Shown: positions 12,509-34,936, counted from the first letter of the stretch. The stretch is DNA of 55,132 nucleotides from an uncultured Clostridium sp. (GCA_964649245.1 CAZYOS010000002.1:1-55132); one strand, 5' to 3'. The notes: a model not told the origin generated them from the letters alone. Numbers and translations: made by a program.

Positions 12509-12518
12509 AAAATCCTTT

Positions 12519-16215: not shown

Positions 16216-17325
16216 CTATTCTAAATTATTAGTTATTTTCAACATATCTTTTCTATATTTTTTAAAATATTTTTTAAATATAGCTTCAATTCTATTTTCT
16301 CTCTTAATTTTTTCTCCATAAGCAAGTTTAAATTCTTTATTAATAGATTTTTTAAATTTAAATTCATCTATTTCATCATTACTATCTACATAATCTTTTA
16401 TAGCTTTAGAAATAACATATTCACTATAAGATTTCTTTTTAGTTCCCTTATCCTCTTTTGAATTAAGAACTAAATAATCAATTAGGAAAGCCTGATCCAT
16501 GTTATCCTTAACTTCACCCGTAATATCATAATTATTATCTTCATTAACTTCTTCTTTAGCATTAACATTATATCTTTCAATAAATTCCCATAATTCTAAT
16601 GCCTTTTTGAAATCATTATTTTTAAGAATAACATTAGTTTTTCTTATTGGAGATTTAACAAATACTATATTAGCAGAAGCAAGTTCTTTAAAAAATGCAC
16701 TATGCATAAAGTCAGCAATTATCAATTGAATTTTTTCTAATCTTTGATCAACTGTTAAGCCGGAGCCATTTACCGTTAGATCCTCAAATACATTACTTTC
16801 CATATTCAAATTAATTTTAACTATTTCTTTACCAAGTTTAGTTTCAGAATTATAATTATATTGTTTATTAACATTTGAACTTGATCCACCAGTCATAAGC
16901 TCTTTTCTTTTAGCAATAAACATTGAAAGATTCATAAGTAGCGTATATATAAATCTATTTTCATATATATCATAACTTTCTTCTTTATTTATGTTTAATA
17001 CTTTAGAAGGTGTAATAGTATCTTCTACTGGATCATATTTTTGTATAAAATTTGTATGAGTAGCTAAATGTACAACACTCTCTTGTGTTAATTTTTTTGC
17101 CTTTTCAACATTAACTACCTCTTCTTCTTGCTGAATAAACTTTTTTGGATTTCTTACAATGTTATCTAAACTAGGAATACATTCCTCAATCTTATCAATC
17201 CAACTATAATCAAATTGAACTTTTTTTTGACTATCATGCATTAATAATTTAGAATTAGCATTATCGATAAACTCATTTTTTGTTTTTTCATCAGCTCTAT
17301 CAATTAATCTATTTATTTTTTCCAT
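16216..17325 (-). CDS. DUF2357 / McrC-N-terminal-like partner of the McrB-like GTPase (paralog 1); no nuclease motif seen by eye
   Basis: RBS AGGTGA, 7 nt after the upstream gene. It carries the motif YDIYENRFIYTL (compare the tpENRF motif of DUF2357 proteins) and SPIRKTNVILKNNDFKKALELWEFI. It is about 55-60% identical to the 26475-27569 product by eye. Confidence 0.5.
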   Translation of the reverse strand: MEKINRLIDRADEKTKNEFIDNANSKLLMHDSQKKVQFDYSWIDKIEECIPSLDNIVRNPKKFIQQEEEVVNVEKAKKLTQESVVHLATHTNFIQKYDPVEDTITPSKVLNINKEESYDIYENRFIYTLLMNLSMFIAKRKELMTGGSSSNVNKQYNYNSETKLGKEIVKINLNMESNVFEDLTVNGSGLTVDQRLEKIQLIIADFMHSAFFKELASANIVFVKSPIRKTNVILKNNDFKKALELWEFIERYNVNAKEEVNEDNNYDITGEVKDNMDQAFLIDYLVLNSKEDKGTKKKSYSEYVISKAIKDYVDSNDEIDEFKFKKSINKEFKLAYGEKIKRENRIEAIFKKYFKKYRKDMLKITNNLE

Positions 17326-18907: not shown

Positions 18908-18948
18908 AAAAATACTCCTATTATACCTATTATTCAGTATACATACTA

Positions 18949-18977
18949 AGTATATCATTATTCGACATTATTCTCAA
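18949..18977 (-). promoter_or_regulatory. SigmaA-like promoter with extended -10 (TTGAGA-17-TGaTATACT)
   Basis: The -35 TTGAGA is at 18977-18972, the spacer is 17 nt, and TGa plus TATACT is at 18957-18949. It lies just downstream of the sipW-2 terminator and upstream of the RBS/ATG at 18907. Confidence 0.45.
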
Positions 18978-19641: not shown

Positions 19642-20742
19642 CTATGGTGTTGCTACTTTAGCATTTAAATTAATAGTAACTCCAACAGCAGTACCAAGTG
19701 TAGCTGTATTTTCACAGTCAACATCTTGTCCTTCTATCCAAATATAAACTCTTACTTTTGTAATACCTTGTGAAACTGTAACAACAGTAGGATATCCTGT
19801 AAGTGTACTACTATTCCAAGCAGTTGCACCAGTTAATGTTCCATCAGCAACAGTAGTTCCTTTATTAAAGTGTCCATTACTTGTTTCAGTTTGTATTAAA
19901 TTACCAACTCCACTTGTTTGAGATGGTGTAGCTAAGAAATTAGTAGTACTAGTTAAATCAACATTTGTTCCAACTGCAGTAGCACCCTTATAAGCTTTAG
20001 TTTGTCCAGCTGTTACATAACCTCTATTAATAGCAGTTGCAGTATGTGTATCAGCATTTGGTTCCCAAATTGAGTAAGCAGTATTTGTTGCTAATGCCCA
20101 AGCAGCTGTAGCACTTGAAGCATTACCAGAATTAATAAATCCTACTCTTATTGAACTTTTAAGTCCAGCGTCTTGTCCACCTTCGTTTATGCTTACAGTT
20201 GAAGTTGGAAGTAACCCTACCTCAACAGCATCTGGATTAGATGATTGAATAAAGATATCAAATGCAATAAAATATGCATTTGCAGCTTCAGTCCATGTTG
20301 CACTTCCAGCAACACAAGCAGAAGGAGTAGTGAATGTATTATCAGAACAACTTCCGTTTGTTTCGGTAGCGGCAGTTAAATTTATACTTCCATCTTCTTG
20401 TAATTGTCCATAATACATTTTAAATTTTCCAGAATCCATTGTTCCATCAGTAGATACTGGTTGTAAATAATCACCGACATTTCCTGTTATATTTGTAGCA
20501 TCAGGAAATTGTGTAACTGAACCAGTATAATAAGCATTTCTTATATGATCAGTTGTAAGTGTTGTTTTCCAATCGGTAGCATCAGTAGATACCTGAATAC
20601 CATTAGTAGCAGATACTTGAACATCAATTCTACCTAATTGAATCAATGTGTTAGCCGTAAACCATGCATAGGTTGCAGTTGATAAGGCAACACCCGTTAA
20701 TAATAGCATAGCAAATGCTATTATAATGTTTTTCTTTTTCAT
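19642..20742 (-). CDS. Large TasA-superfamily-like secreted protein (W-x-EG-x-D-x-DC family), SipW-type signal; candidate fibre subunit
   Basis: The signal is MKKKNIIIAFAMLLLTGVALSTATYAWFTAN. The protein is Thr/Ala/Gly/Ser-rich. Further motifs are SSIRVGFINS, YSIWEPNADTH and the C-terminal VRVYIWIEGQDVDCENTATLGTAVGVTINLNAK. sipW-2 follows directly. Confidence 0.6.
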   Translation of the reverse strand: MKKKNIIIAFAMLLLTGVALSTATYAWFTANTLIQLGRIDVQVSATNGIQVSTDATDWKTTLTTDHIRNAYYTGSVTQFPDATNITGNVGDYLQPVSTDGTMDSGKFKMYYGQLQEDGSINLTAATETNGSCSDNTFTTPSACVAGSATWTEAANAYFIAFDIFIQSSNPDAVEVGLLPTSTVSINEGGQDAGLKSSIRVGFINSGNASSATAAWALATNTAYSIWEPNADTHTATAINRGYVTAGQTKAYKGATAVGTNVDLTSTTNFLATPSQTSGVGNLIQTETSNGHFNKGTTVADGTLTGATAWNSSTLTGYPTVVTVSQGITKVRVYIWIEGQDVDCENTATLGTAVGVTINLNAKVATP

Positions 20743-20764: not shown

Positions 20765-21463
20765 TTATTTGTCTTCTGCTAAAGACAAAACCATTTTCAT
20801 TTCACCACCGAGTATGGCATCTACACATTCAAAGTCATTTCCTTCCATAAAAATAACTATTGTATATTTATCCACCTCATTAGGTATAATATTTTTCCTC
20901 TGTTTTACAAAAGCTTCGGTATTACTGGGAAAAGGTATGGTTCCTTCTTCCGTTTCACCAGTTCTTGCACTTTTTTTTGCATAAACCTCTTTTGGTTCAT
21001 CATTAGTGTACATGATGATTCGAATAGCATCATCTACATTCTTAATAACTGAAAGTATATCAAGCGACATTACATAATTAGTCGTTTCGGTACCTATATT
21101 TTTGACAAAGAATGTATAAGCCATATAATTATTTCCATTATGCTCACCTTCATAATCGGTAGCAATATTTAATGGAAGCCAACTCTCAGTTATATTGTCC
21201 ATATAATCTAAAGCAGTCGCTTCAAGTCTCAAAGGAGTTTCTTTAAAATCACTAGTGGCAGACATAACTATATGCTTATTAGCACTTAAGTTAGGATCTA
21301 AAGTAATTGTGAAATTTCCTTTTTGATTAACAACATAAAGTACACAATATAATGTTGATAAGAATAGTAATAAAAACAGAAAAATTATAAAACATACTCT
21401 TCCAAACATATTTCTTCTGTATACTTTCTTTGCTGTTGTATTAGCAAACAATTTATCTTTCAT
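20765..21463 (-). CDS. Membrane-anchored (uncleaved-type TM) member of the W-x-EG-x-D-x-C beta-sandwich family
   Basis: RBS GGAGG and an ATGA overlap with the upstream gene. The TM helix VCFIIFLFLLLFLSTLYCVLYVV lacks an AWF motif. Further motifs are YTFFVKNIGTETTNYVMSLDI, DDAIRIIMYT and the C-terminal IVIFMEGNDFECVDAILGGEMKMVLSLA. Confidence 0.55.
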   Translation of the reverse strand: MKDKLFANTTAKKVYRRNMFGRVCFIIFLFLLLFLSTLYCVLYVVNQKGNFTITLDPNLSANKHIVMSATSDFKETPLRLEATALDYMDNITESWLPLNIATDYEGEHNGNNYMAYTFFVKNIGTETTNYVMSLDILSVIKNVDDAIRIIMYTNDEPKEVYAKKSARTGETEEGTIPFPSNTEAFVKQRKNIIPNEVDKYTIVIFMEGNDFECVDAILGGEMKMVLSLAEDK

Positions 21464-22659
21464 TTCTTGTCCTCCGTAGATGCTATTGTATAATATTCAA
21501 TTTTATATTTAGATAATATATTCTTGTTAATAATATTTGTTACAATAGGTATCATCTTGTTATCAATTATTTCTGATAAACGTTTACCAAACATTTCATT
21601 TTTACTATAATTTATTAGTAAAAACTTAAAATCTCTAATATCTTTTAAATCAAAACCATTTTCGACATTTTTTTCACTAAATCTTATAGCTAAATTAATA
21701 TTATTATTTTTAATAATATCAATCATATCACTATATTTTTCAAGTGAATCCAAAGGAATAACTAAATATACATAATCTTTTATGTAATTTAACCTATTAA
21801 TTATATATTGAATATTAGTATTATTTGATATAAATCCAGTATTAATTTCAATAAATAATTTAATAGGATTATTAGTTAAAACTGACATGCCTAAGAATAA
21901 TGAACTTATCTCAATCTTAATTTTATTAAGACCAGTTTTAATAATTTCCCTATCACTTATCCTGTTAATTTCTTTCCTACTATCATCTTCAAACTCTTTA
22001 AAATTGTATTTAATATCACTTATACACATTTTTTCATTGTTAGCATTTTTAATTTTGCATAAACTTCCAACAAATTCAGAATATGTATTAAGACTATCTA
22101 AAAAATCAGAGTTCTTAATAATAGTTTTTTCAAATAACATCTTAATTAATTCAGACTTTCGATCTAATTTAATTAGCAATTCAACATCAACAAATTCCTT
22201 AAGATAATTAATAATGTCTTTGTTGATTTCGTCAAAAGATACTTTTTTGCTTTGCAATAACGCTTTATCATATTGTAAAGCAATATAAATAGTAGTGGCA
22301 ATGTCAATAACTGACTTTCTATACTTCAATTCATTTAAATCATTAGTGTTATTTTTTAAATCAAATAAAGTATCGACTTCAATTATACAAAAGCATATTT
22401 CTTGTAATTCTTTATTCCTAATATTTAATTTGTTAAATATATCGAATATTGAATTATTAGTTTCTTTTATATCATTATCAAAATCATACTTGTTAAACTT
22501 TTTAAGAATATAATAATTATATAATTTACTTTTAATGCTCTTGTTATTACTGATTTTACAGGGTAATATTATATCACATATACTAGTAATAAAATTTAAT
22601 CTAAATTTTATGTACTTATCAAGTATACTTCTACTGCCCTCAATATACCTAATCTTCAA
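21460..22659 (-). CDS. Cytoplasmic hypothetical protein, paralog of 29100-30242; the 5' end is problematic (TTG start, in-frame TAG just upstream)
   Basis: The ORF-track start is a TTG. An ATG with a strong RBS (GGAGG) lies at 22686 in the same frame but is separated by a TAG at 22665-22663. The protein shares an ILDKY N-terminal motif and a similar C-terminal region with the 380-aa paralog. Confidence 0.5.
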   Translation of the reverse strand: MKIRYIEGSRSILDKYIKFRLNFITSICDIILPCKISNNKSIKSKLYNYYILKKFNKYDFDNDIKETNNSIFDIFNKLNIRNKELQEICFCIIEVDTLFDLKNNTNDLNELKYRKSVIDIATTIYIALQYDKALLQSKKVSFDEINKDIINYLKEFVDVELLIKLDRKSELIKMLFEKTIIKNSDFLDSLNTYSEFVGSLCKIKNANNEKMCISDIKYNFKEFEDDSRKEINRISDREIIKTGLNKIKIEISSLFLGMSVLTNNPIKLFIEINTGFISNNTNIQYIINRLNYIKDYVYLVIPLDSLEKYSDMIDIIKNNNINLAIRFSEKNVENGFDLKDIRDFKFLLINYSKNEMFGKRLSEIIDNKMIPIVTNIINKNILSKYKIEYYTIASTEDKK

Positions 22660-22747: not shown

Positions 22748-22772
22748 AAAAAAAGTATAATATTTCATACTT
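22748..22772 (-). terminator. Weak AT-rich hairpin plus T-run after the coiled-coil gene
   Basis: On the minus strand AAGTAT-GAAATATT-ATACTT is followed by TTTTTTG. The stem is only 6 bp. Confidence 0.3.
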
Positions 22773-24378
22773 AATTATTTTTAATAATATACTTATTAAT
22801 ATACTTAACTACAACAGGATTAAGTTTAGCTATACTTGCATTATTAGAATTAATAATAACTTGGCATGAATCTATATAATCATCTATATTATCTTCATCA
22901 AGTTCAATATTAATATCTATTAATTTATATCTATCCGCTATTCTTAAAGCAACATCATCTTTTTTAACAAAATCAAATGTATTTATTATCTGAATGGTAG
23001 AAGAAGTAATCAGTGCATGAAAATCATCACAAATCTTTTTTCTTTCTTCTTTTGATAAATTAAGCTCATATTTATTAATACTATCGTTTAACACATATAC
23101 ACTATTTTTAAATAGTAAAAAATCATCTAAAATTGTATACGTTTTACTTATTATTGTAGATACTTTTTCTCTAAATAAACATAAATCATAATCCACAAAT
23201 CCATCTCTAATCAAACTTATTGATGCATTAAGGCTAGTATCAAGTTCATCTATTTTTTTTGCAAGTACATCAAGTTTCTTTTGTTTTTTCTTTTCTCCAA
23301 AAAATAATGAACTTTTTCTTCTTGTTAATCTTCCTCTTTCAATAGTAACTTTGCTAAGTTCAGAATATATTTTATTTTTATTATCAAGTTCCTTTTTTAA
23401 ATCATTACTTTTTGTTGTATATACTGTTTTGTATTCTTCCTTTTTATCTGCAATTTCACTAACTATGGATATTAAATATTTGAATTTTTCATAATATTTA
23501 TATTCCATTAAATTTTCTTTTAACTGAATAATATTATTTATAAAATCGATTTTATTACATGTTTCATACTTTTCTTCACTAATAAATTTTGTCACAGAAT
23601 CTTTATATAGAGAACTATCTTTATCTAGGCTATCTGCATCTATTTCACCATTTTTAATAGCATATAATATATTAATAGGATTTTGCGAATCATCAATACT
23701 CTTTTTAAGTATTAAGTCATTTAATTCTTTTCTAGCAAATGATTCATCTATTTTATTATCTTCAACATATTTTTCTTTTTTCTTTTTTAAAAATTCTGCT
23801 ATGCCTTCTTTTTTTACAAATATGATAATCTTAATATTTAATAAAATATCATTAAGCAAATCATGACTTGTCCAATATAATTGATCAAGTTTGTCCTTCA
23901 TAAGCAATAAATAATCTTCTTTTTCCCTTACTTCAAAAAATCTAATAATATATTCTTTAACAGGAGATGATACATTAAAATCATTAGGTGTCAATGGCAT
24001 TTCATAACTTTCAAATAAAGAAAATAATTTTCTTAATATAGTATTATATTCACCTAAATCTTCAGGATACTCTAAAGCATATAATAAAGTGCACAAATCG
24101 TAAAAAACATTTGTGCCACTATAATTATCAAGTATATGAAAGTATTCTTTTAAAATATTAATTCTTTCGGAACTCTCAGGTTTTTCTTCAATAGTGGGCA
24201 TATTGGATAATAATATATCTTTCAAATCATTTGTAAGAGATTCTTGTAAACTTGTTGCCTCACTTAAAAGAACTTTTAGTGCTTTAACATCTTTAATGTT
24301 TTCAGCTAAAAGTTTTTTACTTCTATCTTCCATTGAAGAGACAGTTGATTCAATTTTACTTAAATCACTTTTCTGCAT
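22771..24378 (-). CDS. Cytoplasmic coiled-coil-rich hypothetical protein (535 aa)
   Basis: Long ORF with an ATG start and no TM or signal. It is Lys/Glu/Leu-rich with heptad-like stretches. No family recognised. Confidence 0.6.
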   Translation of the reverse strand: MQKSDLSKIESTVSSMEDRSKKLLAENIKDVKALKVLLSEATSLQESLTNDLKDILLSNMPTIEEKPESSERINILKEYFHILDNYSGTNVFYDLCTLLYALEYPEDLGEYNTILRKLFSLFESYEMPLTPNDFNVSSPVKEYIIRFFEVREKEDYLLLMKDKLDQLYWTSHDLLNDILLNIKIIIFVKKEGIAEFLKKKKEKYVEDNKIDESFARKELNDLILKKSIDDSQNPINILYAIKNGEIDADSLDKDSSLYKDSVTKFISEEKYETCNKIDFINNIIQLKENLMEYKYYEKFKYLISIVSEIADKKEEYKTVYTTKSNDLKKELDNKNKIYSELSKVTIERGRLTRRKSSLFFGEKKKQKKLDVLAKKIDELDTSLNASISLIRDGFVDYDLCLFREKVSTIISKTYTILDDFLLFKNSVYVLNDSINKYELNLSKEERKKICDDFHALITSSTIQIINTFDFVKKDDVALRIADRYKLIDINIELDEDNIDDYIDSCQVIINSNNASIAKLNPVVVKYINKYIIKNN

Positions 24379-25041: not shown

Positions 25042-25062
25042 AAAAAAAGGAGTAAAACTCCT
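25042..25062 (-). terminator. Short hairpin plus T-run overlapping the stop of the 460-aa gene
   Basis: On the minus strand AGGAG-TTTTA-CTCCT is followed by TTTTTTTG. Confidence 0.4.
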
Positions 25063-26443
25063 AATCAACTGAATATACTTGAAAATAACCAGAAAACGAT
25101 TTGCCTTGATCAAAATTTTGATTTTCATTTAGACCTTTAACTTTAAAAGTAAAAGTATATTCTTGTGTTGAAGTTGGGCCTATTACAACTGTATCAGCAA
25201 TAAATGATGTATTTCTTGGTACCATAGTATAATCCTGTGAATAGCCTTCTCCTGTTGATTCAATCTTATATAGGAAATTATCACTAGTGAAAGTATAATT
25301 AGTAACTACCATTTCAATTTTATATCTTACATACTCTGAAGACCTGTTTGTAATTGTTATCTTCTTAGTTGCATATTTAGTAACATTACCAGTCTGATCT
25401 TCAGGAAACAAATTATCAATAACAATTTGTTTGGAATCAATAAAATCTATAATAAACTCTGCAGTTGCTATATCTGCTTGATTATTTCCTATCGCAGTGG
25501 AAGAACCAGTATTGTTTTCAATAACAGCTATATTTTTAACGCAATTAAGATCACAGACTCCATCTCCATCTGTATCACAATGAAGATTACATACTCCATT
25601 ATTATTTGTATCAAAATTCAAGTCAGCATTTCCATCATTGTCATTATCAATATACATGTTAGCCTTTCCATCACCATTTAAATCTATGTTGGTGTCTGGC
25701 CATCCATCCCCATTAACATCACAATTCAAATCACAGACTCCATCATTGTCTAAGTCTTGATTAATTAAATTAAAGTCTGCTTTTCCATCTCCAGTCGTAT
25801 CCACATTAAATACAGCTTTTTGATTTCCTTTATAATCAATATTTACATATGGTTTTTTTCCATCATTAGAAATATTAATATTTTCCTTATCATCTTTATC
25901 GGTATCAATATTTAAATCAGCAATTCCGTCATTATCTATATCTAAATTTAAATGTGCTATTGATAGGTATCTTAATGTGACATAAGTTGAACCAAGTGCA
26001 ATGAAAGTAAACAATCCAAGCAATATAATTATTAATATTAAACTTCCTTTTTTGTTTGTTTCGAAACTAAAGTTCATTTTATTGCCATCTTTAGTTACAA
26101 CTAATTTATATGGTAATCTTAAATTATTATCATCAGGATCACAACTTAATTTTAAACATTTAATGGCAAGCTTTCTTATTATTGAATAATCAATATCATC
26201 ATAATCTTTATAAAGGTCAGTTAAAACAAGAGCAAATACTCTAGACTGATCTTTTACATCTAGGCCTTCTAACTTATATAAATCAACAGTATTTGATTTA
26301 TATACATCGTCTAGAAATGAATCATCAATAATATATGAATCCGCAGTATTTTCTTTTTTAATTTCTGGTTGTTCAGTAGTAGCAGAATTTTGATTATCAG
26401 AAACTATTTCTTCGGAAATATTATTATTTTCTTCATTACTCAT
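25061..26443 (-). CDS. Bitopic membrane protein: cytoplasmic N-domain, TM, about nine Ca-binding DxDxDG (TSP type-3/dockerin-like) repeats, C-terminal TasA/CalY-like beta-sandwich
   Basis: The start is re-set to the ATG at 26443 (RBS AAAGGAG; MSNEENNN...). The TM helix is SLILIIILLGLFTFIALGSTYV. The repeats read DIDNDGIADLNIDTD...DVNGDGWPDTNIDLNGDGKANMYIDNDNDGNADLNFDTNNNGVCNLHCDTDGDGVCDLNC. The C-terminus reads KITITNRSSEYVRYKIEMVV...NENQNFDQGKSFSGYFQVYSVD. Confidence 0.65.
   Translation of the reverse strand: MSNEENNNISEEIVSDNQNSATTEQPEIKKENTADSYIIDDSFLDDVYKSNTVDLYKLEGLDVKDQSRVFALVLTDLYKDYDDIDYSIIRKLAIKCLKLSCDPDDNNLRLPYKLVVTKDGNKMNFSFETNKKGSLILIIILLGLFTFIALGSTYVTLRYLSIAHLNLDIDNDGIADLNIDTDKDDKENINISNDGKKPYVNIDYKGNQKAVFNVDTTGDGKADFNLINQDLDNDGVCDLNCDVNGDGWPDTNIDLNGDGKANMYIDNDNDGNADLNFDTNNNGVCNLHCDTDGDGVCDLNCVKNIAVIENNTGSSTAIGNNQADIATAEFIIDFIDSKQIVIDNLFPEDQTGNVTKYATKKITITNRSSEYVRYKIEMVVTNYTFTSDNFLYKIESTGEGYSQDYTMVPRNTSFIADTVVIGPTSTQEYTFTFKVKGLNENQNFDQGKSFSGYFQVYSVD
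25538..25948 (-). repeat. Coding tandem array of Asp/Asn/Gly-rich Ca-binding-loop repeats (period about 11-13 aa)
   Basis: The D-x-[DN]-x-D-G-x-x-D motif recurs about nine times. Paired Cys residues (GVCDLNC, GVCNLHC) resemble thrombospondin type-3 repeats. Confidence 0.7.
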
Positions 26444-26474
26444 TTTAACTCCTTTCATTTATTTCTGTATTTTA

Positions 26475-27569
26475 TTAAATATTATCACAAATCTTGTTAA
26501 TATAAAAATCATTTGCTTTTATAAACTTATCGTATATTTTAATAATATCTTCTTCTTTATTCTTTCTTTTCTTTATAGCAGATTTTATCTCACTCATTAT
26601 AAAAGTAGATAATTTTTTTTCAGATATATCAGATATATCTATATATTCTTCTAATAAAGCTAATATTTTTTCAGCAAGAGCATTGCCTGAAATATCTTCC
26701 CTATTTTCTTTTATATTCATACTTATATAATCTAAATAATATGTTAAATCAAATTTATTCTTAATATTTAAATTGCTTAGATTTTCTATTGTTGATGCCT
26801 TATATATAGGTTCCCCTATTTCACTATTCATTAAGAATTCCCATAATGTTAATGCTTTTTGAAAATTAGTATCCTTTAATATAATATTTGTCTTTCTAAT
26901 AGGAGATTTAACGGGTACTGCTTGAGACAAACTTTTAATAAAAATACTATTTTCAAAATCAGTTACAATATTTTGAAGGTTCACAATTCTTTCTTGCATT
27001 TCTTCTTTATTAAAATCTTTAGGCAATTCATTTTTTAAAGATTCAAAATTAACTGATATTTTAATGTTTTCGTTATTATATGATGATTCTCCATTATATT
27101 CTAATGAATTAATTATTTCAATATGAGGTTCTTCTAATTCCTTCTCAGTATATTTTCTAATAAATCTACCTAACTCTTTTATTAGTGTGTAGATAAATCT
27201 ATTCTCATATAAATCCCATGTTTCTTCTTTTTGAACATTTAATACTTTGGATGGTTTAATCATTCCATCTTTATCAATGTCTTGAATAAAATTAGTATGC
27301 TGTGCTAAATGTTGTATTGTTTCAGTGGATATTTTTTTTGATTTTTCTACTATAACTATATCTTCTTCTTGTTGAATAAAACGTCTAGGATTTCTAATAA
27401 TATTATCTAAATATGGAAGGGCTTCTTCTACAATTGGCATCCAACTAAAATCACGAGAAACAGTATCAGTTTTTCGACTATATTCTAGTTCGGAATTAGT
27501 TTTATCATTAAATAATTTAAAATCTTCAGCACTAATTTTACCAATTATTTCTGTAATTTTATCTGTCAT
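26475..27569 (-). CDS. DUF2357 / McrC-N-terminal-like partner of the McrB-like GTPase (paralog 2); no nuclease motif seen by eye
   Basis: RBS GGAGG. It carries the motifs NIIRNPRRFIQQEEDIVIVEKSKK, WDLYENRFIYTLIKEL and SPIRKTNIILKDTNFQKALTLWEFL. It is collinear with the 16216-17325 product. Confidence 0.5.
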   Translation of the reverse strand: MTDKITEIIGKISAEDFKLFNDKTNSELEYSRKTDTVSRDFSWMPIVEEALPYLDNIIRNPRRFIQQEEDIVIVEKSKKISTETIQHLAQHTNFIQDIDKDGMIKPSKVLNVQKEETWDLYENRFIYTLIKELGRFIRKYTEKELEEPHIEIINSLEYNGESSYNNENIKISVNFESLKNELPKDFNKEEMQERIVNLQNIVTDFENSIFIKSLSQAVPVKSPIRKTNIILKDTNFQKALTLWEFLMNSEIGEPIYKASTIENLSNLNIKNKFDLTYYLDYISMNIKENREDISGNALAEKILALLEEYIDISDISEKKLSTFIMSEIKSAIKKRKNKEEDIIKIYDKFIKANDFYINKICDNI

Positions 27570-27586
27570 CTATTCCTCCAATAACT

Positions 27587-29107
27587 TTATATATTTTTTT
27601 TAAGGTTTAATAAATATTTTACACACTCTTTCATATTTCCATCGCCAAATGTTTGGTTTAAGAAATCAATAAATCCATCAACTTCATTTCTTATATATGA
27701 CATATTTAGTTGTTCAAATTTTCTTAATATTTTGTGACATACCAAGTAATCAACAGCTACTATTTCACTACCACCACATGCAACATATACTGGAATAAAC
27801 TCTCTCATTTGTTGTAAAATACGATTACCAAAAGATAATCTGAAATGATCAATAACATAATCGTCCATTTTAGAAATTTTATCAAGAATATCTTGACTCA
27901 ATGGTTTAGATTTTTGTGCTTCATCAAATAATTGTTCTAAATATTCTGATGTAATATGAAGTTTTTCAGTTTTAGGGGCATCAAATTTTGGTGCTTTGTC
28001 ATTAATATCTATAGGTAAAGCACGATCATAAACTTTATCAGTTACCATGAATGTTGAATCATCATTATTTATTGTTCCTATATACCACATGTTTTTTGGT
28101 ATTTTAAACTTGCCATCAATAAGCTTTTTGGGATCGGTTGGCCAAGGATTAGCAACTAAATCAATAACCCACTCATTATAACTAGGCATTTCCATAATAG
28201 ACAACATCTCAGCAAAATAGTACTCAACACGGGCTATATTCATTTCATCTAAAATAGAAATATATATTTTATCATTATAAGATGCTTCATACATTTTACT
28301 TAATAATTCAGTTTCATTAAATTTTTTAGTAAATTCATTAAAATATCCAAATAATTCAGCTCTATCTCTCCATGACGGTTGAACAGGGGCTATTACAGAT
28401 TCATTATCTAAAAAACTACCTGCAGCATATGCAAGAGAAGTTTTACCTGTACCAGAAATACCTTGTAAAATTATCAATCTATTAGAAGCAAATGCAGAAA
28501 TAAATAATCTGATTAAATCAATATTATAAAAAAGCTTTAATTCAGATGCAGCATAATTTCTAAAAGAATCGCATAATTCATTCAATTTTATTGTGCTATT
28601 AGTTGGTTCTGGAACGTAATTTTCCCATTTTTCGTCAATTCTACTTAATTTATAAAATCTTTCATCATGCTCATGCTCTAATTCTTCAATTTCTTCTTTT
28701 TCTTTAATTTCTCCATTTTCATCAGTTGAAGGAATTTCACCATTCGCCATTGCTAAATATTTTTCATTTTCTTTTTTTAATTTTATATTTTCATAATTAA
28801 GATTTTCATTTTCTTCAAGAAGCATTTCATGTTCATGAGACTTTCTTCTGACTCTTACTATTCTTTTAAATATTTTAATAATAATAAATATTAATATAGC
28901 TACTAAAGCGACTAAACAAATAATAGCAAGAACAACTATAAATACTTTTGCCCCAGTTAAATCACTTTTGTATTTTCCTATAATATCTATATAATTAATT
29001 ACATTAAACATCTGTAATAATCCTTTAAAGACTCCTTCAAAAATGCCTATAAAGCCTTTAAAGAAAGGTGCTAGAAATTCTAAGAAAAATTTTTCCACAT
29101 TACCCAT
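27587..29107 (-). CDS. Membrane-anchored McrB-family AAA+ GTPase (paralog 2), 506 aa
   Basis: RBS GGAGG. The N-terminus MGNVEKFFLEFLAPFFKGFIGIF is followed by a TM helix (VFIVVLAIICLVALVAILIFIIIKIF-KRIVRVRRK) and a coiled coil. The AAA+ domain has Walker A LQGISGTGKTSL, ILDEMNIARVEYYFAEMLS and YIGTINNDDSTFMVTDKVYDRA. The AAA+ region is about 75% identical to paralog 1 by eye. Confidence 0.7.
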   Translation of the reverse strand: MGNVEKFFLEFLAPFFKGFIGIFEGVFKGLLQMFNVINYIDIIGKYKSDLTGAKVFIVVLAIICLVALVAILIFIIIKIFKRIVRVRRKSHEHEMLLEENENLNYENIKLKKENEKYLAMANGEIPSTDENGEIKEKEEIEELEHEHDERFYKLSRIDEKWENYVPEPTNSTIKLNELCDSFRNYAASELKLFYNIDLIRLFISAFASNRLIILQGISGTGKTSLAYAAGSFLDNESVIAPVQPSWRDRAELFGYFNEFTKKFNETELLSKMYEASYNDKIYISILDEMNIARVEYYFAEMLSIMEMPSYNEWVIDLVANPWPTDPKKLIDGKFKIPKNMWYIGTINNDDSTFMVTDKVYDRALPIDINDKAPKFDAPKTEKLHITSEYLEQLFDEAQKSKPLSQDILDKISKMDDYVIDHFRLSFGNRILQQMREFIPVYVACGGSEIVAVDYLVCHKILRKFEQLNMSYIRNEVDGFIDFLNQTFGDGNMKECVKYLLNLKKNI

Positions 29108-30242
29108 TATTTACCTCCATAAAATCTAATTTTGTAAAAATTAAATCATCCTCTTTGTATATTTTTTCATCACATTTTTTAATATACTTAATCTTTTTTG
29201 ATTCAATATTTTCTTTATATTTAGTAATATATTCTTCGTTTGCAATTAAAATAACATCATTACTAAATTTTATGTTACTTACATCTTCTAATTTATTACA
29301 ATCAATAAATATTTTAATACCATATGACATTATTTTATTTAATTCTTCACATTCTTCATATTCATCACTATCAATTATTAATGATATGTGACTACATATA
29401 TAACGGTTTTTTAAAGGTTTAATGAAAGTGGATATCATAGTTTTCTTTTTATAAAAATTCTTATTTACTTTAAAAGCCATACAAATTCTCTGATCATATA
29501 ATATGCATTTTAATAATGATACTATGGCTAATTCATAAGATATTAAAATAAATGTATTATCTATTCCTATCTTGTTATTAACTTTTTCAATATCGCTTTT
29601 TTGAAATGTTTTTATATCATCTAATATATAATTATATTTTACCTGATACAATCTATTATTTTCATTTAATAATAAGTAGTCATTATAGGAACTATTATTA
29701 ATAGATTTCCTTAAATATGATCTTAATCTCTTATCATCCTTTGTATTTGTTTTAACTAAATCCAATAACTTATTCATATGTATTTTAGTCTTGTCATCTT
29801 TTTTATAAATAAAATTTTGTGATACTTTTCCCGCAATACTAATAATAAAATCTGATTTATTAGGTACAATAACAATAGCATCTCTTAATCTATTTATTAA
29901 AAAAGCAAAATAGATAATATATGATAAATATATTATCTCAATATTTTTATTTTTAATATCCAGTTTCTCTTTTTCATAATGTTCTATTACACATTGTAAT
30001 ATAATTTTAATATCATTATCTGTTTCAGAGTCAAACTTATAATGTTTATTTACTATACTATAATCATTAGAAAGCATCATATAATACTTGCTATAATAAA
30101 TATCTAATATCTTTTTTACAGTACTTAATTTACTAGGTATTATTACATCTAATTTGTATTGAAAAACAATTAATATTTCATTAATATAATCAACTAATTC
30201 AGACTTCTTTTTAGAAAAGTATTTATCTAATACACTAGTCAT
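29100..30242 (-). CDS. Cytoplasmic hypothetical protein (380 aa), paralog of 21460-22659, translationally coupled to the McrB-like gene
   Basis: RBS AAGGAG. There is no TM or signal. An 8-nt overlap joins it to the downstream McrB-like gene. The C-terminal part (GIKIFIDCNKLEDVSNIKFSNDVILIAN) is loosely reminiscent of a degenerate EAL/TIM-barrel segment, but this is very uncertain. Confidence 0.55.
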   Translation of the reverse strand: MTSVLDKYFSKKKSELVDYINEILIVFQYKLDVIIPSKLSTVKKILDIYYSKYYMMLSNDYSIVNKHYKFDSETDNDIKIILQCVIEHYEKEKLDIKNKNIEIIYLSYIIYFAFLINRLRDAIVIVPNKSDFIISIAGKVSQNFIYKKDDKTKIHMNKLLDLVKTNTKDDKRLRSYLRKSINNSSYNDYLLLNENNRLYQVKYNYILDDIKTFQKSDIEKVNNKIGIDNTFILISYELAIVSLLKCILYDQRICMAFKVNKNFYKKKTMISTFIKPLKNRYICSHISLIIDSDEYEECEELNKIMSYGIKIFIDCNKLEDVSNIKFSNDVILIANEEYITKYKENIESKKIKYIKKCDEKIYKEDDLIFTKLDFMEVNNG

Positions 30243-30267
30243 ATATTCTCCTTATTATTCTTTATTA

Positions 30268-30296
30268 AGTATATCAAACAATGAAATTAAATGCAA
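30268..30296 (-). promoter_or_regulatory. SigmaA-like promoter with extended -10 (TTGCAT-17-TGaTATACT)
   Basis: The -35 TTGCAT is at 30296-30291, the spacer is 17 nt, and TGa plus TATACT is at 30276-30268. It follows the sipW-3 hairpin immediately. Confidence 0.45.
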
Positions 30297-30310
30297 TATT
30301 TTATAAAATA

Positions 30311-30330
30311 AAAGATAGTTGCCTATCTTT
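30311..30330 (-). terminator. AT-rich hairpin plus U-rich tail abutting the sipW-3 stop codon
   Basis: On the minus strand AAAGATAG-GCAA-CTATCTTT is followed by TATTTTAT. Confidence 0.4.
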
Positions 30331-30950
30331 TATATATTTCCATTTTTATTTCTTAAACTTAACATTTTATTTTTCAAAAGTAATAGTTTTAATATCTTAT
30401 AAATATCATAAGATATAATTGCAAGTGATGGTATCATAACAGCTATAATCCAGCCGCCCTTACTAGCTAAAAAGAACTGCAATCTTCCAAGTTGAGGAAA
30501 AACTGCTACCACTTTACCAACTACATTATCAGGAGATACTTTTTCATTATCTGCTTTTTGATTAGCATCTCCTTTAGTTTGAAAAACCAGTCCTCCTAAA
30601 TCAGGAACATTCAGTACATCTGCTACTCTATGCGTAATCGGAGTACCCCCAAAAAAATCATTTGTAGAAAAGAAAGTAATAACATCTCCTACTTTTATTT
30701 TAGAAGGATCATCTTGCCTATATGTTAACACTACATCATATACTGCTATATTCGGTGTCATACTTGGACTAATTATAGTATACAATCCAACTAGTGGCTT
30801 GTGTCCTTTTGCTTCTGCAGCCTTTCCTGATACGACATAAAATACAAGAAATAATCCTATTATAACTAAAAGCCCTACAATAAAGTATCCAACTGTTTTA
30901 GAAATAATATTTAGTATTTTTTTAATTTTTTCTTTTTTTGTTAGTTCCAT
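30330..30950 (-). CDS. sipW: Archaeal/ER-type signal peptidase I (SipW-like) paralog 3
   Basis: RBS AGGTGA. It has an N-terminal TM helix, the Ser box IISPSMTPNIAVYDVVL, the His box TPITHRV, box E TKGDANQKAD and a C-terminal TM helix. Confidence 0.8.
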   Translation of the reverse strand: MELTKKEKIKKILNIISKTVGYFIVGLLVIIGLFLVFYVVSGKAAEAKGHKPLVGLYTIISPSMTPNIAVYDVVLTYRQDDPSKIKVGDVITFFSTNDFFGGTPITHRVADVLNVPDLGGLVFQTKGDANQKADNEKVSPDNVVGKVVAVFPQLGRLQFFLASKGGWIIAVMIPSLAIISYDIYKILKLLLLKNKMLSLRNKNGNI

Positions 30951-30957
30951 AATTCAC

Positions 30958-31491
30958 CTAATCTATCGCCTTTTCCAAAGTAATCATTCCATCAAATATC
31001 CCACTACTTTTTTCACCAGTATACTTGATATTTAAAGTATAATAGTGTACTTCATCAGGTGATATTTTTCCAGTACCAAGTGTAGTGCTTTCAGCAGGCA
31101 TATTTCTATTAGATATGTTAATGACTGTATCATTTGAATCCTTGGTTTTAGTATAACAAGATAAAGAATAAGTAAAATCATCATTTTCACCATCAAAAGC
31201 TTTAGAATTTACATCGAATAACAATTTATAATTAGCACTATATTCATAAGAATTATTACTAATAGAAAAATCATAATTATAATCTGTATTAGGCTCTAGA
31301 CCATTAAAAATTATTTTATTAGAACTATTATAACTAATTAATAAACTTACTTTTTTAACAACAATGTTTATATTATTTTCTTTTTCATTTTTCGTTTTAT
31401 AATAATTATAAATTATTCCAGAAGTCATAGTTATTAAAACAAGTAATATTATAACAAAAATTATCATTAACCTTTTACTATCATTTTTCAT
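30958..31491 (-). CDS. Small membrane-anchored TasA/CalY-like beta-sandwich protein (no AWF cleavage motif)
   Basis: RBS GGAGA. The TM helix is LMIIFVIILLVLITMTSGIIY. Further motifs are YDFSISNNSYEYSANYKLLFDV and the C-terminal HYYTLNIKYTGEKSSGIFDGMITLEKA. Confidence 0.5.
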   Translation of the reverse strand: MKNDSKRLMIIFVIILLVLITMTSGIIYNYYKTKNEKENNINIVVKKVSLLISYNSSNKIIFNGLEPNTDYNYDFSISNNSYEYSANYKLLFDVNSKAFDGENDDFTYSLSCYTKTKDSNDTVINISNRNMPAESTTLGTGKISPDEVHYYTLNIKYTGEKSSGIFDGMITLEKAID

Positions 31492-31545: not shown

Positions 31546-31569
31546 AAAAAAAGTAGACATTTGTCTACT
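31546..31569 (-). terminator. Intrinsic terminator after the 216-aa TasA-like gene
   Basis: On the minus strand AGTAGAC-AAAT-GTCTACT is followed by TTTTTTATAT. It is preceded by two further hairpins (TTCAAC..GTTGAA and the GC-rich palindrome TATGTGCGCGCATATA). Confidence 0.6.
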
Positions 31570-31636
31570 TGTGTTTACAATTATATATGCGCGCACATAT
31601 TCAACGGATAGAGTTGAATAACATACAATATAATTA

Positions 31637-32287
31637 TTAAGATCCTGAAGTAACAGTAACACGTAATCTACCAAGGAATGCTTTTCCTTGAGCAGCATTT
31701 TGATCAGAATTATCATCCTTAAACTTAATAGTGTAAGTATACTTGTGAACTGATACTCCTGTTATTGTTCCACGATGTGCAGCTGTTAATTCATTATTAG
31801 TTCCAACTAATGGTACTGGGACAAAATCAGCTGATGAACCAGTTCCGGTAAATGCAGCAACATCACCAGTCAAGAATGTTGAACCAGTTGCAGTATATTC
31901 TATCTTATTAGTAAACCAATCACCAGATGTACCTGTTGCGCCTTGAGATGTATTAACTAGTGCAGATAAAGTATTAGTAGTAACATCTAACCAAATAGTA
32001 TAAATAATATTACTTGAAAGATTTGATGTACTGTTAGATATAGTAAATGTTTTAGTTGCTATATTCCCTGTCTCACCTTCAGGTCTAATATTTGATAAAT
32101 TAATAGTATCGCCATCTTCAAAAGTAATGCTACCTAAAACAGCAGTTGTTACTATAATACTTGATGCGTTATCATTTCCAGAAACAGTAACAGAGAACCA
32201 CGCAAATGTAGCACCTATGATTGCAACTAGTAATGTGGCAATTCCTATAACTGATAAAAATATCGTTTGACCCTTGTTATTATCCAT
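31637..32287 (-). CDS. TasA/CalY-like secreted protein (216 aa), SipW-type signal; candidate major fibre subunit
   Basis: Very strong RBS AAAGGAGG with its own promoter and terminator. The signal is ...LLVAIIGATFAWFSVTVSG. The protein is Thr/Ser/Gly-rich. Further motifs are KTFTISNSTSNLSSNIIYTIWLDV and the C-terminal DQNAAQGKAFLGRLRVTVTS (compare TasA NKYQGNSIKLQFSFEATQ). Confidence 0.6.
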   Translation of the reverse strand: MDNNKGQTIFLSVIGIATLLVAIIGATFAWFSVTVSGNDNASSIIVTTAVLGSITFEDGDTINLSNIRPEGETGNIATKTFTISNSTSNLSSNIIYTIWLDVTTNTLSALVNTSQGATGTSGDWFTNKIEYTATGSTFLTGDVAAFTGTGSSADFVPVPLVGTNNELTAAHRGTITGVSVHKYTYTIKFKDDNSDQNAAQGKAFLGRLRVTVTSGS

Positions 32288-32311
32288 AACTCTTCCTCCT
32301 TTACTATATTA

Positions 32312-32340
32312 AGTTTATCAGCAATTGATTTTTTTTTCAA
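32312..32340 (-). promoter_or_regulatory. SigmaA-like promoter with extended -10 (TTGAAA-17-TGaTAAACT) for the 216-aa gene
   Basis: The -35 TTGAAA is at 32340-32335, the spacer is 17 nt, and TGa plus TAAACT is at 32320-32312. It lies in the divergent intergenic region shared with the yfhO-like gene. Confidence 0.45.
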
Positions 32341-32386
32341 TACTTTTTCACTATTTTATGATAAAATATTTTTTGTGAGGTTAAAT

Positions 32387-34936
32387 ATGAAAAAAATAAA
32401 TACGTTTATAAAGAAATACTACCCTGAGATATTGTCAATTATTGTTCCAATCATTATTCTCTTAGTAGCATCTGTATTTTCAAAAATATATCCATTAGGC
32501 ACATATTCATTCGCAAAATATGATGGTTACTATCAATACCCAGGATTCACATCATATTTTAAAAAAGTTTTATTAGGACAAGAAAGTCTGTTTTATTCGT
32601 TCAAAGGATTATTAGGTTATAATTTTTATGCAACAGCTATTTATTACATGTTTAATCCTACAAATTTATTATGTATTTTTTCAAATAATAATAATATTTT
32701 AATATATTATACATTTCTTGTATATTTAAGGATTGCATTATGTGGATTTACTATGTGTAAATACTTAAGATATAAATATAAAGATAAGCCTAATATGTAC
32801 CTAGTTATTTTTAGTATTGCCTATGCTCTAATGGCATATAATGTTTGTTACTTTTTCAATTTTATGTATTTTGATGTTGTAGCATTATTTCCAATTGTTA
32901 TGATAGGCTTGGAAAAGCTAATATATGAAAAAAAGGTAACACTTTATATAATATCATTAACAATAACAATCATTTCAAACTTTTACATAGGGTATATGGT
33001 ATGTATTTTTTCAGCGCTTTATTTTATATATAATTATATATTACTTGAAAATAAAGATAAAAAGATAATTAAAAAATTTATTATTTCAAGTTTATTAGCA
33101 GGTTTAATGTGCTCAATTATACTATTACCAGTTATTTACGAATTATTTCAAGGAAAAGTAGAATTATATAAAGATTCTATACAAACAAACTATTTTGATT
33201 TTAATTTAAACTTTTTAAACTTTTTTTACAAAGCTACTCCTGGTTCAACTGTTACTTATGATATTAAATATGGAACTGTAAATATATATTGCTCTCTATT
33301 AGTAATAATTTCAGTAATAAAGTACTTCTTTAATACAAAAATATCAACTAAAGAAAAAATAGTAACTGGTTCATTTATTGCATTCTTCTTATTAAGTATT
33401 AGCTTTAATTTAATAGATTATTTTTGGCATTTAATGCAAAGACCTATATGGTATCCTAATAGATATATATTTACTTTCGATTTCTTTTTAATAATGATAG
33501 CATACAAATCAATAAAATATAATTCATATGTAAAAATGAATTGGGTTGTAAGGTTAATAGTTTGCTTTGCATATATTGCATTAATGTCATATCCTGCTAA
33601 AGAAGCTGCATTTATTGATAAATTAATGCCATGCATATGTTTTATTGTTACAATAATGTTATTATTTGAATATGTATTCTTCTCAGATAAAAAGTATGCT
33701 TGGATATTAGTACTTTGTTTATTTACTGTAGAGGTACAACTAAATACAATAATGACCTTTAAACAATTATCTAATGCTTCTGAAATAGAATCTTTTCAAA
33801 TAACAAACTCCTCCTATGAAAATGCTGTTAAAGCTGCTGAAGAAGATGCAAAAGATGAAATATTTTATAGATTAGAATTTTCTAGAAACTTAAATTATAA
33901 TAACCCCGCTTTATATAATTATAATGGAGTAGCAATTTTCAGTTCAATTAGAAATGGAAAAATAATGGCTTTCTTTGATGATTATTTTGATTACACAATC
34001 AAAGATAGAGCAAGTATTGAATTTAACATGTCAAATCCATATATGACATCAATATTAGGAATTAAATATTTTAATGGAACTGAAGGTACAAACTATTATG
34101 ATTATATAGATGTTGGAGAGATTAGTATACTTAAAAATAATGATGCATTAAGTTTAGGATATATGGTAAATAATAGTATTTATAATTATGAATTCAGTAA
34201 AGATACCAAAGTTCTTAATATTAAAGAACTTGAGAACAGTATGTTGGACAATGAAGAGCCTGTGTATACTGTATTAGATAACTTCATATATAATGGTACA
34301 GAAAGAGTATACTCAGAAGAAACAAAAAAGACTACTATAAATAGAATTCCAGGTGTTGAATCACCATATACGTCTATTGTTGGTATTGCTCCATATGATG
34401 GATTTCTGTATTATAATAAGAGTTCTGCATTTTATACAAATGCCGTACTTTATATAAATGGTACTGAAACAACAATTTATAATATTGAAAATACTGCTCC
34501 CTTATTCTTACATGAAGGTGATTCATACGAAATAAGATTTACAGCAACTGTTGATTATGAAATAAAACATGCAGAGTATTATTTATTAAAATTTGACACT
34601 TATAAAAGTTTTATAAATGAATTAAAACAAAATGAGTTAGAAATAACTAAATATGATAAAGATTCTCATCTAGAAGGATATGTTACAAGTACAGATAATA
34701 AAAATGTATTATTTACAACTATCCCATATGATAAAGGATGGACTATAAAAATTGATAATAAAAAAGTATCATACAAATCATGCTACAATGCATTCGTATG
34801 TTTAGATTTAGAAGAAGGAAAACATAAAATAGAATTTAATTATATTCCGAAATATTTTATAATTGGTTCTATTATAAGTATTATGTCACTATTAGTATCA
34901 ATATTTTATATAAGAAAAAATAAGGTTAGAAAATAG
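32387..34936 (+). CDS. YfhO-family polytopic membrane protein (GT-C-type glycosyltransferase family)
   Basis: The start is re-set to the ATG at 32387 (RBS GTGAGG; MKKINTFIKKYYPEILS...). There are about 12 or more TM helices, a large extracytoplasmic C-domain and a terminal TM helix. The 849-aa size and architecture fit YfhO. Confidence 0.7.
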   Translation: MKKINTFIKKYYPEILSIIVPIIILLVASVFSKIYPLGTYSFAKYDGYYQYPGFTSYFKKVLLGQESLFYSFKGLLGYNFYATAIYYMFNPTNLLCIFSNNNNILIYYTFLVYLRIALCGFTMCKYLRYKYKDKPNMYLVIFSIAYALMAYNVCYFFNFMYFDVVALFPIVMIGLEKLIYEKKVTLYIISLTITIISNFYIGYMVCIFSALYFIYNYILLENKDKKIIKKFIISSLLAGLMCSIILLPVIYELFQGKVELYKDSIQTNYFDFNLNFLNFFYKATPGSTVTYDIKYGTVNIYCSLLVIISVIKYFFNTKISTKEKIVTGSFIAFFLLSISFNLIDYFWHLMQRPIWYPNRYIFTFDFFLIMIAYKSIKYNSYVKMNWVVRLIVCFAYIALMSYPAKEAAFIDKLMPCICFIVTIMLLFEYVFFSDKKYAWILVLCLFTVEVQLNTIMTFKQLSNASEIESFQITNSSYENAVKAAEEDAKDEIFYRLEFSRNLNYNNPALYNYNGVAIFSSIRNGKIMAFFDDYFDYTIKDRASIEFNMSNPYMTSILGIKYFNGTEGTNYYDYIDVGEISILKNNDALSLGYMVNNSIYNYEFSKDTKVLNIKELENSMLDNEEPVYTVLDNFIYNGTERVYSEETKKTTINRIPGVESPYTSIVGIAPYDGFLYYNKSSAFYTNAVLYINGTETTIYNIENTAPLFLHEGDSYEIRFTATVDYEIKHAEYYLLKFDTYKSFINELKQNELEITKYDKDSHLEGYVTSTDNKNVLFTTIPYDKGWTIKIDNKKVSYKSCYNAFVCLDLEEGKHKIEFNYIPKYFIIGSIISIMSLLVSIFYIRKNKVRK

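Follow-up and report, generated by a model that had tools for sequence, protein, structure and literature searches.

The N-terminal (DUF2357) domain of McrC plugs into the McrB hexamer and stimulates it in canonical McrBC, and degenerate EAL-domain receptors of cyclic di-GMP (c-di-GMP) gate surface machinery, as in the FimX-PilZ-PilB pathway of type IV pili and the LapD-LapG control of the adhesin LapA. Among McrB GTPases, one clade has a fused FtsB-like transmembrane/coiled-coil segment and is linked to signal peptidases and pilus assembly; it has been described by Bell et al. (eLife 2024, PMC11090510), who named it CoCoPALM and distinguished it by a GTPase signature that reads NxD and not NxxD, usually with a D or an E following. 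In the accessible text of that article the class receives one paragraph, has no component list and is deferred to a "forthcoming publication"; its sister clade, CoCoNuT, is a predicted defence system. We found no follow-up publication on CoCoPALM, and nothing on it in the text supplements of the article. Here we describe a McrBC-like pair, and the two genes with which it forms a four-gene block, in a 55,132-nucleotide (nt) stretch of DNA from an uncultured Clostridium sp. (GCA_964649245.1, CAZYOS010000002.1:1-55132; hereafter the window). The window holds a second such pair, and because both fit the definition of CoCoPALM, the NxD/NxxD reading aside, the finding is a rediscovery of a named, uncharacterised class. 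That the block is an operon of this class, encoding a McrBC-derived GTPase motor at the cell envelope that serves the assembly or anchoring of a fibre, is in our judgement about an even chance.

The four genes, all on the minus strand, make up one tight operon. The first encodes a soluble cytoplasmic protein of 380 amino acids (aa; 29100-30242) and is followed by genes for a 506-aa membrane-anchored McrB-like AAA+ GTPase (27587-29107), a 364-aa protein with the McrC N-terminal (DUF2357) domain and no nuclease domain (26475-27569), and a 460-aa bitopic protein (25061-26443). The open reading frame (ORF) of the last is listed as 25061-26458 (465 aa); ATG 26443 is the better start, since AAAGGAG stands 6 nt before it, and this start, like the other coordinates and lengths, is the one that a first-pass annotation of the window had given. 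The same annotation had the 380-aa gene overlapping the GTPase start by 8 nt, and the sequence reads accordingly: within the overlap at 29100-29107, ATGGGTAA, the 380-aa gene ends in TAA and the GTPase begins at an ATG, which a Shine-Dalgarno sequence, GGAGGT, precedes at 6 nt. Shine-Dalgarno sites also precede the 364-aa and 380-aa genes, and the 364-aa gene starts 17 nt 3' of the GTPase gene. A terminator-like hairpin with a T-run (25048-25062, minus strand; a consensus match only) lies directly 3' of the 460-aa stop, at the end of the module. By eye, TTGCAT-17 nt-TATACT can be picked out as a candidate internal promoter in the 87-nt gap 5' of the 380-aa gene (30243-30329, minus strand); such a promoter would possibly fit the autonomy of the four-gene block in other genomes.

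A search for homologues of the GTPase returned at least 8000 candidates, all with E <=1e-5, and relatives occur in at least 573 species-level genomes; the 120 best matches listed are nearly all full-length, at about 500 aa. The lineages that carry the family are mainly from the gut and largely uncultured (RF39-like Bacilli, Acutalibacteraceae, Ruminococcus, Christensenellaceae). ORFs were called in 83 loci and labelled with the window proteins, and the loci fall into two subtypes. In type 2, to which this block belongs, the genes for the 380-like, GTPase, DUF2357 and 460-like proteins follow one another in the same order and on the same strand in 30 of 31 loci, with gaps of -17 to +32 nt; in only two cases is the gap wider, at 187 and 200 nt, both ahead of the last gene. 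Loci L004, L011 and L012 share the 8-nt overlap, and the four-gene order was seen again in L001-3, L084 and L086. Conservation of the block in orthologous loci was the check that the first-pass annotation had called for, having argued that the locus was hard to explain as the chance insertion of a defence island. Order and tight spacing proved to be conserved in about 30 species-level genomes, all of them uncultured gut Bacilli or metagenome-assembled genomes labelled "Tenericutes", which speaks against such an insertion. In type 1, GTPase and DUF2357 genes stand among SipW/pilin-like genes, in Bacilli and in Clostridia (Acutalibacteraceae, Ruminococcus, Christensenellaceae, Oscillospiraceae). 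The 30 type-2 GTPases are monophyletic in a neighbour-joining tree and sister to all type-1 sequences. The neighbours of type-2 blocks, annotated with Pfam on three long contigs, are varied and mostly housekeeping (ClpP, GAPDH, MurG, a POTRA-domain gene, a penicillin-binding protein); the idea that the block always lies in a division or cell-wall cluster was rejected, as the flanks vary between loci. In one lineage, seen in L001 (6590-8347), L002, L003 and L006, genes for a DUF87/HerA-FtsK-type ATPase (E 9e-21) and for a 680-690-aa protein with the beta-domain of the 460-aa protein stand just upstream of the type-2 block, and a 385-aa SipW-like gene and a DUF5305 gene follow downstream.

The 506-aa protein matches the NCBIfam McrB family over about 210 residues (E 1.1e-7) and McrB of PDB entry 6hz4 (E 1.4e-7), with its Walker A (GISGTGKTS) and Walker B (ILDEMN) motifs aligned. 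Its scores fall far short of the equivalog cutoffs, which makes it a relative of E. coli McrB and not an orthologue; its match to Pfam AAA_5 is below threshold by itself. Three stretches, GISGTGKTS, LDEMNI and GTINNDDSTF, are invariant throughout the family, at an overall identity of only 52-87% (52-62% between Bacilli and Clostridia). In the alignment of HMMER to 6hz4, INNDDS is set against MNTADRS of E. coli McrB; the invariant signature G-T-I-N-N-D-D-S is readable as N-x-D-D, and the gapless alignment to E. coli M-N-T-A-D-R also allows NxxD. The protein begins with a conserved amphipathic segment, which is followed by one strong transmembrane segment (within residues 47-87), by KRIVRVRRK and a charged linker with heptad-like, coiled-coil-like character, by the GTPase domain at about residues 200-410, and by a conserved C-terminal helical region. 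The succession of transmembrane segment, KRIVRVRRK and charged linker places the GTPase domain in the cytoplasm and the amphipathic segment at or beyond the membrane. Residues 1-200, made up of the amphipathic segment, the transmembrane segment and the charged linker, do not contain the DNA-binding specificity domain of McrB; a membrane anchor and a charged helical linker have replaced it.

The 364-aa partner matches Pfam DUF2357 (E 2.1e-9, above the Pfam cutoff) and retains only this McrC N-terminal domain, without the nuclease. Scans of Pfam, NCBIfam and PADLOC assigned it to no nuclease family, and an alignment of 56 DUF2357 partners has no conserved motif of the D…(D/E)xK nuclease type. 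Its C-terminal 90 residues or so are variable and charged, and the long clostridial homologues give only coiled-coil-type Pfam matches. The membrane-anchored McrB-like protein and DUF2357-like partner that had been proposed for this position are thus recovered by profile and structure-database matches, and so is the proposed second copy of the pair. The paralogous type-1 GTPase (17333-18958, minus strand) is 56% identical to the 506-aa protein, and its DUF2357 partner (369 aa; 16216-17325, minus strand; Pfam E 1.8e-13) is 39% identical to the 364-aa protein. The listed ORF of the paralogous GTPase has 541 aa; its start is probably an internal Met 17 codons downstream (MNFFIRF…), from which all the homologues align, the extra N-terminal residues having no counterpart.

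The 380-aa protein had been called family-specific, its EAL-like character being overlooked; it had likewise gone unnoticed that the class had been named, as CoCoPALM, in the accessible text of PMC11090510. In the other half of the window the 380-aa protein has a 399-aa paralogue (21460-22659, minus strand). By BLAST the two are barely related (E 0.005); as family profiles they are full-length homologues (hhalign 98.1%, E 8.9e-14, 365 columns), in agreement with the earlier claim of a paralogous cytoplasmic protein in both halves. Both families also match a gene of about 330 aa that directly precedes the GTPase gene in many further loci, of type 1 (hhalign 99.0%, E 2.5e-18). The 380-aa family is a core partner of both subtypes and not a local oddity; it evolves fast, and forms 79 clusters among 1.84 billion representatives, with full-length members all of 330-395 aa.

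An AlphaFold2 model of the 380-aa protein built from 25 sequences (predicted local distance difference test, pLDDT, 81; predicted template-modelling score 0.79) has a helical N-terminal half (about residues 1-180) and a beta/alpha C-terminal half (about 185-360). The top 19 Foldseek matches of this model in the PDB are all EAL domains (Bd1971, LapD, FimX, BifA, MorA, MucR; E 2.4e-4 to 0.086). EAL is also the only Pfam family that matches more than two of 70 family representatives (4 of 70, best E 7.5e-5), and a weak EAL match appears once in a 50-member set; the family profile matches in addition a designed TIM barrel, 7mcd (E 2.9e-7), perhaps in part through composition bias. The C-terminal half probably descends from an EAL domain that has degenerated and lost its catalytic activity. 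Clostridial type-1 loci carry 18 bona fide EAL genes of about 250 aa at the position of the window's 399-aa gene (for instance L042:5471-6226, Pfam E 9e-48), and there the membrane pilin-like gene follows them directly. Their motifs are partly degenerate (INES, NDFG, VDGIE), and in a 441-aa protein (L055:5986-7311) the EAL domain is fused to an HD-GYP-like N-domain (YDGMGFP). An hhalign comparison of the 380-aa family with these clostridial proteins gave E 0.003-0.01 in co-linear register (controls 0.43-0.70); we discounted it, as this shallow alignment also gave a match of E 4.7e-7 (44 columns, 11% identity) with an unrelated family, the secreted pilin-like proteins represented at 19642-20742 of the window. 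That match sets the clostridial EAL C-terminus (…vrvDGvD…) against the invariant W.EGQD.DC motif of the pilin-like family and is most likely an artefact.

A natural fusion ties these proteins to membrane machinery. The 651-aa protein P0129 joins an N-terminal SipW-like peptidase to a C-terminal 380-like domain and was found in two independent sequencing runs (L087:8970-10925 and L088:1507-3462), where a GTPase and DUF2357 pair follows it directly; in L087 it stands immediately upstream of a 509-aa gene and the DUF2357 gene. By this arrangement, the 380-like domain comes to lie at the cytoplasmic face of the SipW membrane complex.

The 460-aa protein has one transmembrane segment (135-162) and, as the first-pass annotation had noticed, Ca-binding-type repeats, namely seven DxDxDG-type motifs. 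Its orthologues share one architecture, with a cytoplasmic N-domain of about 130 residues (motif YLPY..V.K), one transmembrane segment, a repeat region with 4-9 DxDxDG-type motifs and conserved Cys pairs, and a C-domain of about 130 residues that ends in QN.DQGK.F.G. The transmembrane segment ends in a degenerate SipW-type motif, GSTYVTLRY (family consensus ATY.g..yl), placed after the 130-residue cytoplasmic extension. The protein is clearly predicted to be single-pass, leaving about 130 residues in the cytoplasm and a stalk of Ca repeats with the beta-domain outside. The topology put forward earlier, with the GTPase and this N-domain inside and the beta-domain outside, follows in the same way from single transmembrane segments and the positive residues after them.

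The C-domain of the 460-aa family is homologous to a secreted 216-aa protein encoded upstream of the block (31637-32287, minus strand), as seen by hhalign (97.9%, E 4e-13) and hmmsearch (E 2.1e-16), at 40% identity, and the beta-domain also occurs in larger proteins near several type-2 blocks. The 216-aa protein consists of a SipW-cognate-type signal (…GATFAWFS…) and a mature beta-domain, and its gene adjoins that of a 206-aa SipW-type (archaeal-type) signal peptidase I (30330-30950, minus strand; TIGR02228 E 1.4e-25; SipW NF046067 E 2.3e-24), which lies 87 nt upstream of the four-gene block. It is our candidate for the major fibre subunit. A 177-aa N-terminally anchored protein (30958-31491, minus strand; transmembrane segment 2-31) is a distant relative of the beta-domain (hhalign against the 460-aa family 89.9%, E 1.7e-6). 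In all, the locus has three SipW-type signal peptidases and several proteins with a SipW-cognate signal motif (ATYAWF, ATFAWF). A second terminator-like hairpin (31551-31570, minus strand) was found by consensus scan only, just 3' of the 216-aa gene.

The first-pass annotation had gone further and assigned a TasA domain to the 460-aa protein, for which neither Pfam M73 nor the PDB sequences give support. The 216-aa protein matches Pfam Peptidase_M73 at the cutoff (E 1.2e-4, 22.5 bits), only in the signal and first-strand region, with no stretch passing alone, and has no match in a PDB sequence search; the pilin-like family of half 1 (42 sequences) gives no M73 or PDB signal. An AlphaFold2 model of the 460-aa protein from an alignment of 3 window sequences has a pLDDT of 48.7, its N-domain and repeats being unusable and its usable part being residues 334-465 (pLDDT 58-87 per 10-residue block). 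With this low-confidence model of the C-domain, Foldseek gives generic jelly-roll, beta-sandwich and carbohydrate-binding-module matches, among them AbpA (7ueg, E 1.5e-3) and CanA (9hdi, E 1.8e-3), and TasA is absent from the top 50.

The two halves of the window were said to share one architecture. This stands for the GTPase, the DUF2357 partner and the 380/399-aa protein and fails for the membrane protein: a common one in both halves was rejected, the 372-aa protein after pair 1 having no BLAST similarity to the 460-aa protein. The 399-aa gene overlaps by 4 nt (21460-21463) the start of a gene for a 232-aa N-terminally anchored pilin-like protein, so that half 1 couples its EAL-like gene to that of a membrane pilin-like protein and not to the GTPase. 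The subtypes also differ in their surroundings: by profile search, 49 of 51 type-1 loci have SipW within 10 kb, along with pilin-like genes and giant adhesins, compared with 5 of 31 type-2 loci.

We propose that a ring of the GTPase would sit beneath the membrane and would be switched on by the DUF2357 protein, and that the EAL-like subunit may gate or scaffold this ring, on the model of the degenerate EAL proteins FimX and LapD and their gating of pilus ATPases or adhesin display. The ring would act on the cytoplasmic N-domain or the transmembrane segment of the 460-aa protein, and on adjacent SipW substrates, and could thereby control their extraction from the membrane, their processing by SipW or their polymerisation. 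The 460-aa protein itself would be the membrane-embedded base of a Ca-stabilised surface fibre of 216-aa-type subunits. In its fullest form, the proposal would make a domesticated McrBC motor the engine of an unrecognised class of surface-fibre biogenesis in Gram-positive bacteria, widespread among the uncultured Bacilli and Clostridia of human and animal guts, in which a McrC-plug-activated GTPase ring, gated by an EAL-derived and ancestrally c-di-GMP-responsive subunit, extracts or primes SipW-dependent, TasA-like, Ca-binding pilins upon a bitopic pilin-like base. As a whole, this larger claim is tentative and we hold it to be doubtful.

Several points weigh against a fibre-assembling motor. 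To our knowledge, TasA fibres, the closest characterised SipW-dependent fibres, form by donor-strand exchange without any NTPase, which leaves the need for a motor unexplained. Sequence lends the EAL-like assignment little support: the 380-aa protein has no match in Pfam (EAL, PF00563, included) or NCBIfam, and the family alignments of 50 and 70 sequences contain no invariant residues, those of EXL, N, EXXE, DD, K, E and Q included. The EAL matches found by Foldseek have TM-scores of 0.25-0.31 (query) and 0.24-0.46 (target) with large root-mean-square deviations, and the diguanylate cyclase motif GG[DE]EF is found neither in the window nor in the ORFs of loci L001-L083. Peptidase_M73 was not matched by the 460-aa protein or by 21 orthologous C-domains in Pfam, nor was there a PDB profile match; a TasA fold for the beta-domain is plausible and unproven. 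Interaction, GTPase activity, the fibre and c-di-GMP binding are putative for every member. Finally, 26 of 31 type-2 loci have no SipW within 10 kb, so the pilus link of type 2 rests on the window, on L004 and on domain homology.

Because most type-2 blocks are not SipW-linked, the main rival is inside-out control of a single surface protein, in which no polymer forms. The EAL-like protein and the GTPase would sense the state of the cytoplasm and, through the N-domain and transmembrane segment of the 460-aa protein, switch its ectodomain in the manner of LapD, so that it is displayed, shed or adhesive. The loci without SipW mostly lack any other pilin-like gene within 10 kb as well, and no extracytoplasmic partner other than the 460-aa protein is constant; the contigs are mostly short, however, and absence within 10 kb is therefore of little weight for the rest of the genome. 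A control of this kind would suit a block that has its own terminator-like hairpin and a candidate upstream promoter, and a 380-aa model that has the degenerate EAL receptors LapD and FimX among its best fold matches. Yet both the window and L004 encode, three genes upstream of the block, a secreted protein of the SipW type that is a homologue of the ectodomain to be switched; proteins with SipW-type signals are encoded directly downstream of the block in L013, L022 and L030, and the sister subtype is almost always found within SipW/pilin clusters. We consider the single-protein switch unlikely, and prefer the envelope motor that assembles or anchors a fibre.

The McrB and McrC ancestry of the pair, and the predicted defence role of its sister clade CoCoNuT in the accessible text of Bell et al. 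(PMC11090510), would also fit a membrane-anchored anti-phage or anti-plasmid system of McrBC/CoCoNuT descent, in which the pair would sense invading nucleic acid or a perturbation of the envelope, and the 380- or 460-aa protein, as an unrecognised effector, would carry out defence or abortive infection. None of the four proteins has a nuclease, HEPN or other effector domain by Pfam, NCBIfam, PADLOC or alignment, and the DNA-binding domain that would be expected of McrB has given way to the membrane anchor. The best defence-library match of the 506-aa protein is the PADLOC candidate PDC-M26A (E 4.5e-36), and we found no literature on PDC-M26A or PDC-M26; because this model already matches the GTPase, such loci risk being annotated as anti-phage systems. 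One type-2 block, in L086, adjoins conjugation-type genes; against this, the neighbours elsewhere are housekeeping or SipW/pilin genes, and a search of 2.9 million viral contigs yielded a single distant relative. The strong conservation of the GTPase, across the species-level genomes counted above, is also unlike that of patchy, fast-evolving defence genes. A defence role is accordingly given a low probability here. That an FtsB/FtsL-like anchor recruits the ring to the septum, where it would organise cell-wall or surface-layer proteins in division, is very improbable: the anchor is called FtsB-like in the accessible text of Bell et al. (PMC11090510), that of the paralogue matches the FtsL family (TIGR02209, ftsL_broad) at E 0.033, and a penicillin-binding protein, MurG or FtsQ-type POTRA gene lies near some blocks (L001, L084), but this FtsL match is weak and below any threshold, the flanking genes vary between loci, and nothing ties the 380-aa or 460-aa proteins to division.

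The window has about 25% G+C, and between 32287 and 5459 all ORFs of at least 150 aa but one are on the minus strand. The cluster ends with a gene for a giant protein of 2356 aa (5459-12529, minus strand) that has a SipW-type signal motif (ESFAWLYDEF) and many leucine-rich (BspA-like) repeats; in four clostridial type-1 loci (L042, L043, L045, L068) a gene of 2389-2399 aa directly follows the DUF2357 gene, and a giant adhesin may be a regular cargo or the tip of the type-1 system. A 535-aa cytoplasmic protein (22771-24378, minus strand) that matches no family recurs near type-1 clusters in seven other loci (L021, L038, L039, L050, L067, L071, L081) and is possibly one more component. Divergently adjacent to the 216-aa gene lies a gene for a YfhO/PgfM-type membrane glycosyltransferase (32267-34936, plus strand; Pfam E 7.8e-153), an arrangement that is repeated in L004; from its position we suggest that the fibre subunits are possibly glycosylated. 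With the listed TTG as its start, this gene would overlap the 216-aa gene; the true start probably lies further downstream. The flanks of the window hold an AddA-type UvrD helicase (1025 aa) and an AddB-type PD-(D/E)xK protein (782 aa; together 48341-53738, minus strand), an amidase with LysM repeats, a permease and Sir2, and these AddAB-type and similar housekeeping genes mark the window as chromosomal.

If the proposed motor exists, it would be the first NTP-driven assembly route for fibres of the TasA (donor-strand) type, which are thought to self-assemble, and a clear case of a restriction-system motor recruited to a function at the cell surface. Adhesion structures are essentially unknown in the gut lineages that supply most members of this abundant GTPase family, which has more than 8000 protein clusters. 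The EAL or EAL-like partner would offer a concrete regulatory handle, and the four-gene block is small enough for heterologous reconstitution.

Among known systems, canonical McrBC (E. coli; PDB 6hz4, 6ut6) shares with the block the AAA+ GTPase core with Walker A/B motifs and an Asn/Asp signature, and a partner with the McrC N-terminal domain; the block differs in having neither the DNA-binding N-domain nor the PD-(D/E)xK nuclease, in its membrane anchor and in its housekeeping or surface-protein context. With FimX and LapD the likeness lies in the 380-aa model, which matches EAL domains including theirs, in the translational coupling of the gene to that of an NTPase in a surface-structure locus, and in the true, partly degenerate EAL gene that clostridial relatives carry at the equivalent place. 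The differences are an EAL similarity at or below detection, no conserved ligand-binding residues, no local GGDEF protein, and an NTPase of the McrB type and not the PilB type. As in TapA-SipW-TasA of Bacillus subtilis and the AbpA and CanA systems, SipW-type genes stand beside secreted proteins with a G/A-T-[YFW]-A-x-F signal motif; the membrane-proximal accessory protein, here the 460-aa protein, shares the domain of the subunit as TapA does with TasA, and its Ca-binding-type repeats recall the Ca-binding theme of CanA and AbpX. TasA fibres, AbpA bundling pili and CanA cannulae are, in contrast, assembled without any NTPase, and M73 is unmatched by the 460-aa protein and borderline for the 216-aa protein, with TasA outside the top 50 fold matches of a low-confidence model. 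The closest relative is CoCoPALM (PMC11090510), with which the window pairs have in common a transmembrane and coiled-coil-type N-terminus, an adjacent McrC homologue cut down to DUF2357 and helical regions, and an association with the SipW family; their signature N-N-D-D is compatible with an NxD followed by a second D, a reading as NxxD being possible too. The window block's subtype departs from that description in being SipW-linked in only 5 of 31 loci, and EAL or EAL-like and bitopic pilin-like partners, a SipW fusion and two monophyletic subtypes do not figure in the published text as far as it is accessible. To the published account the present locus adds a four-gene subtype with EAL-like and pilin-like partners, a fusion to SipW and a weak SipW linkage.

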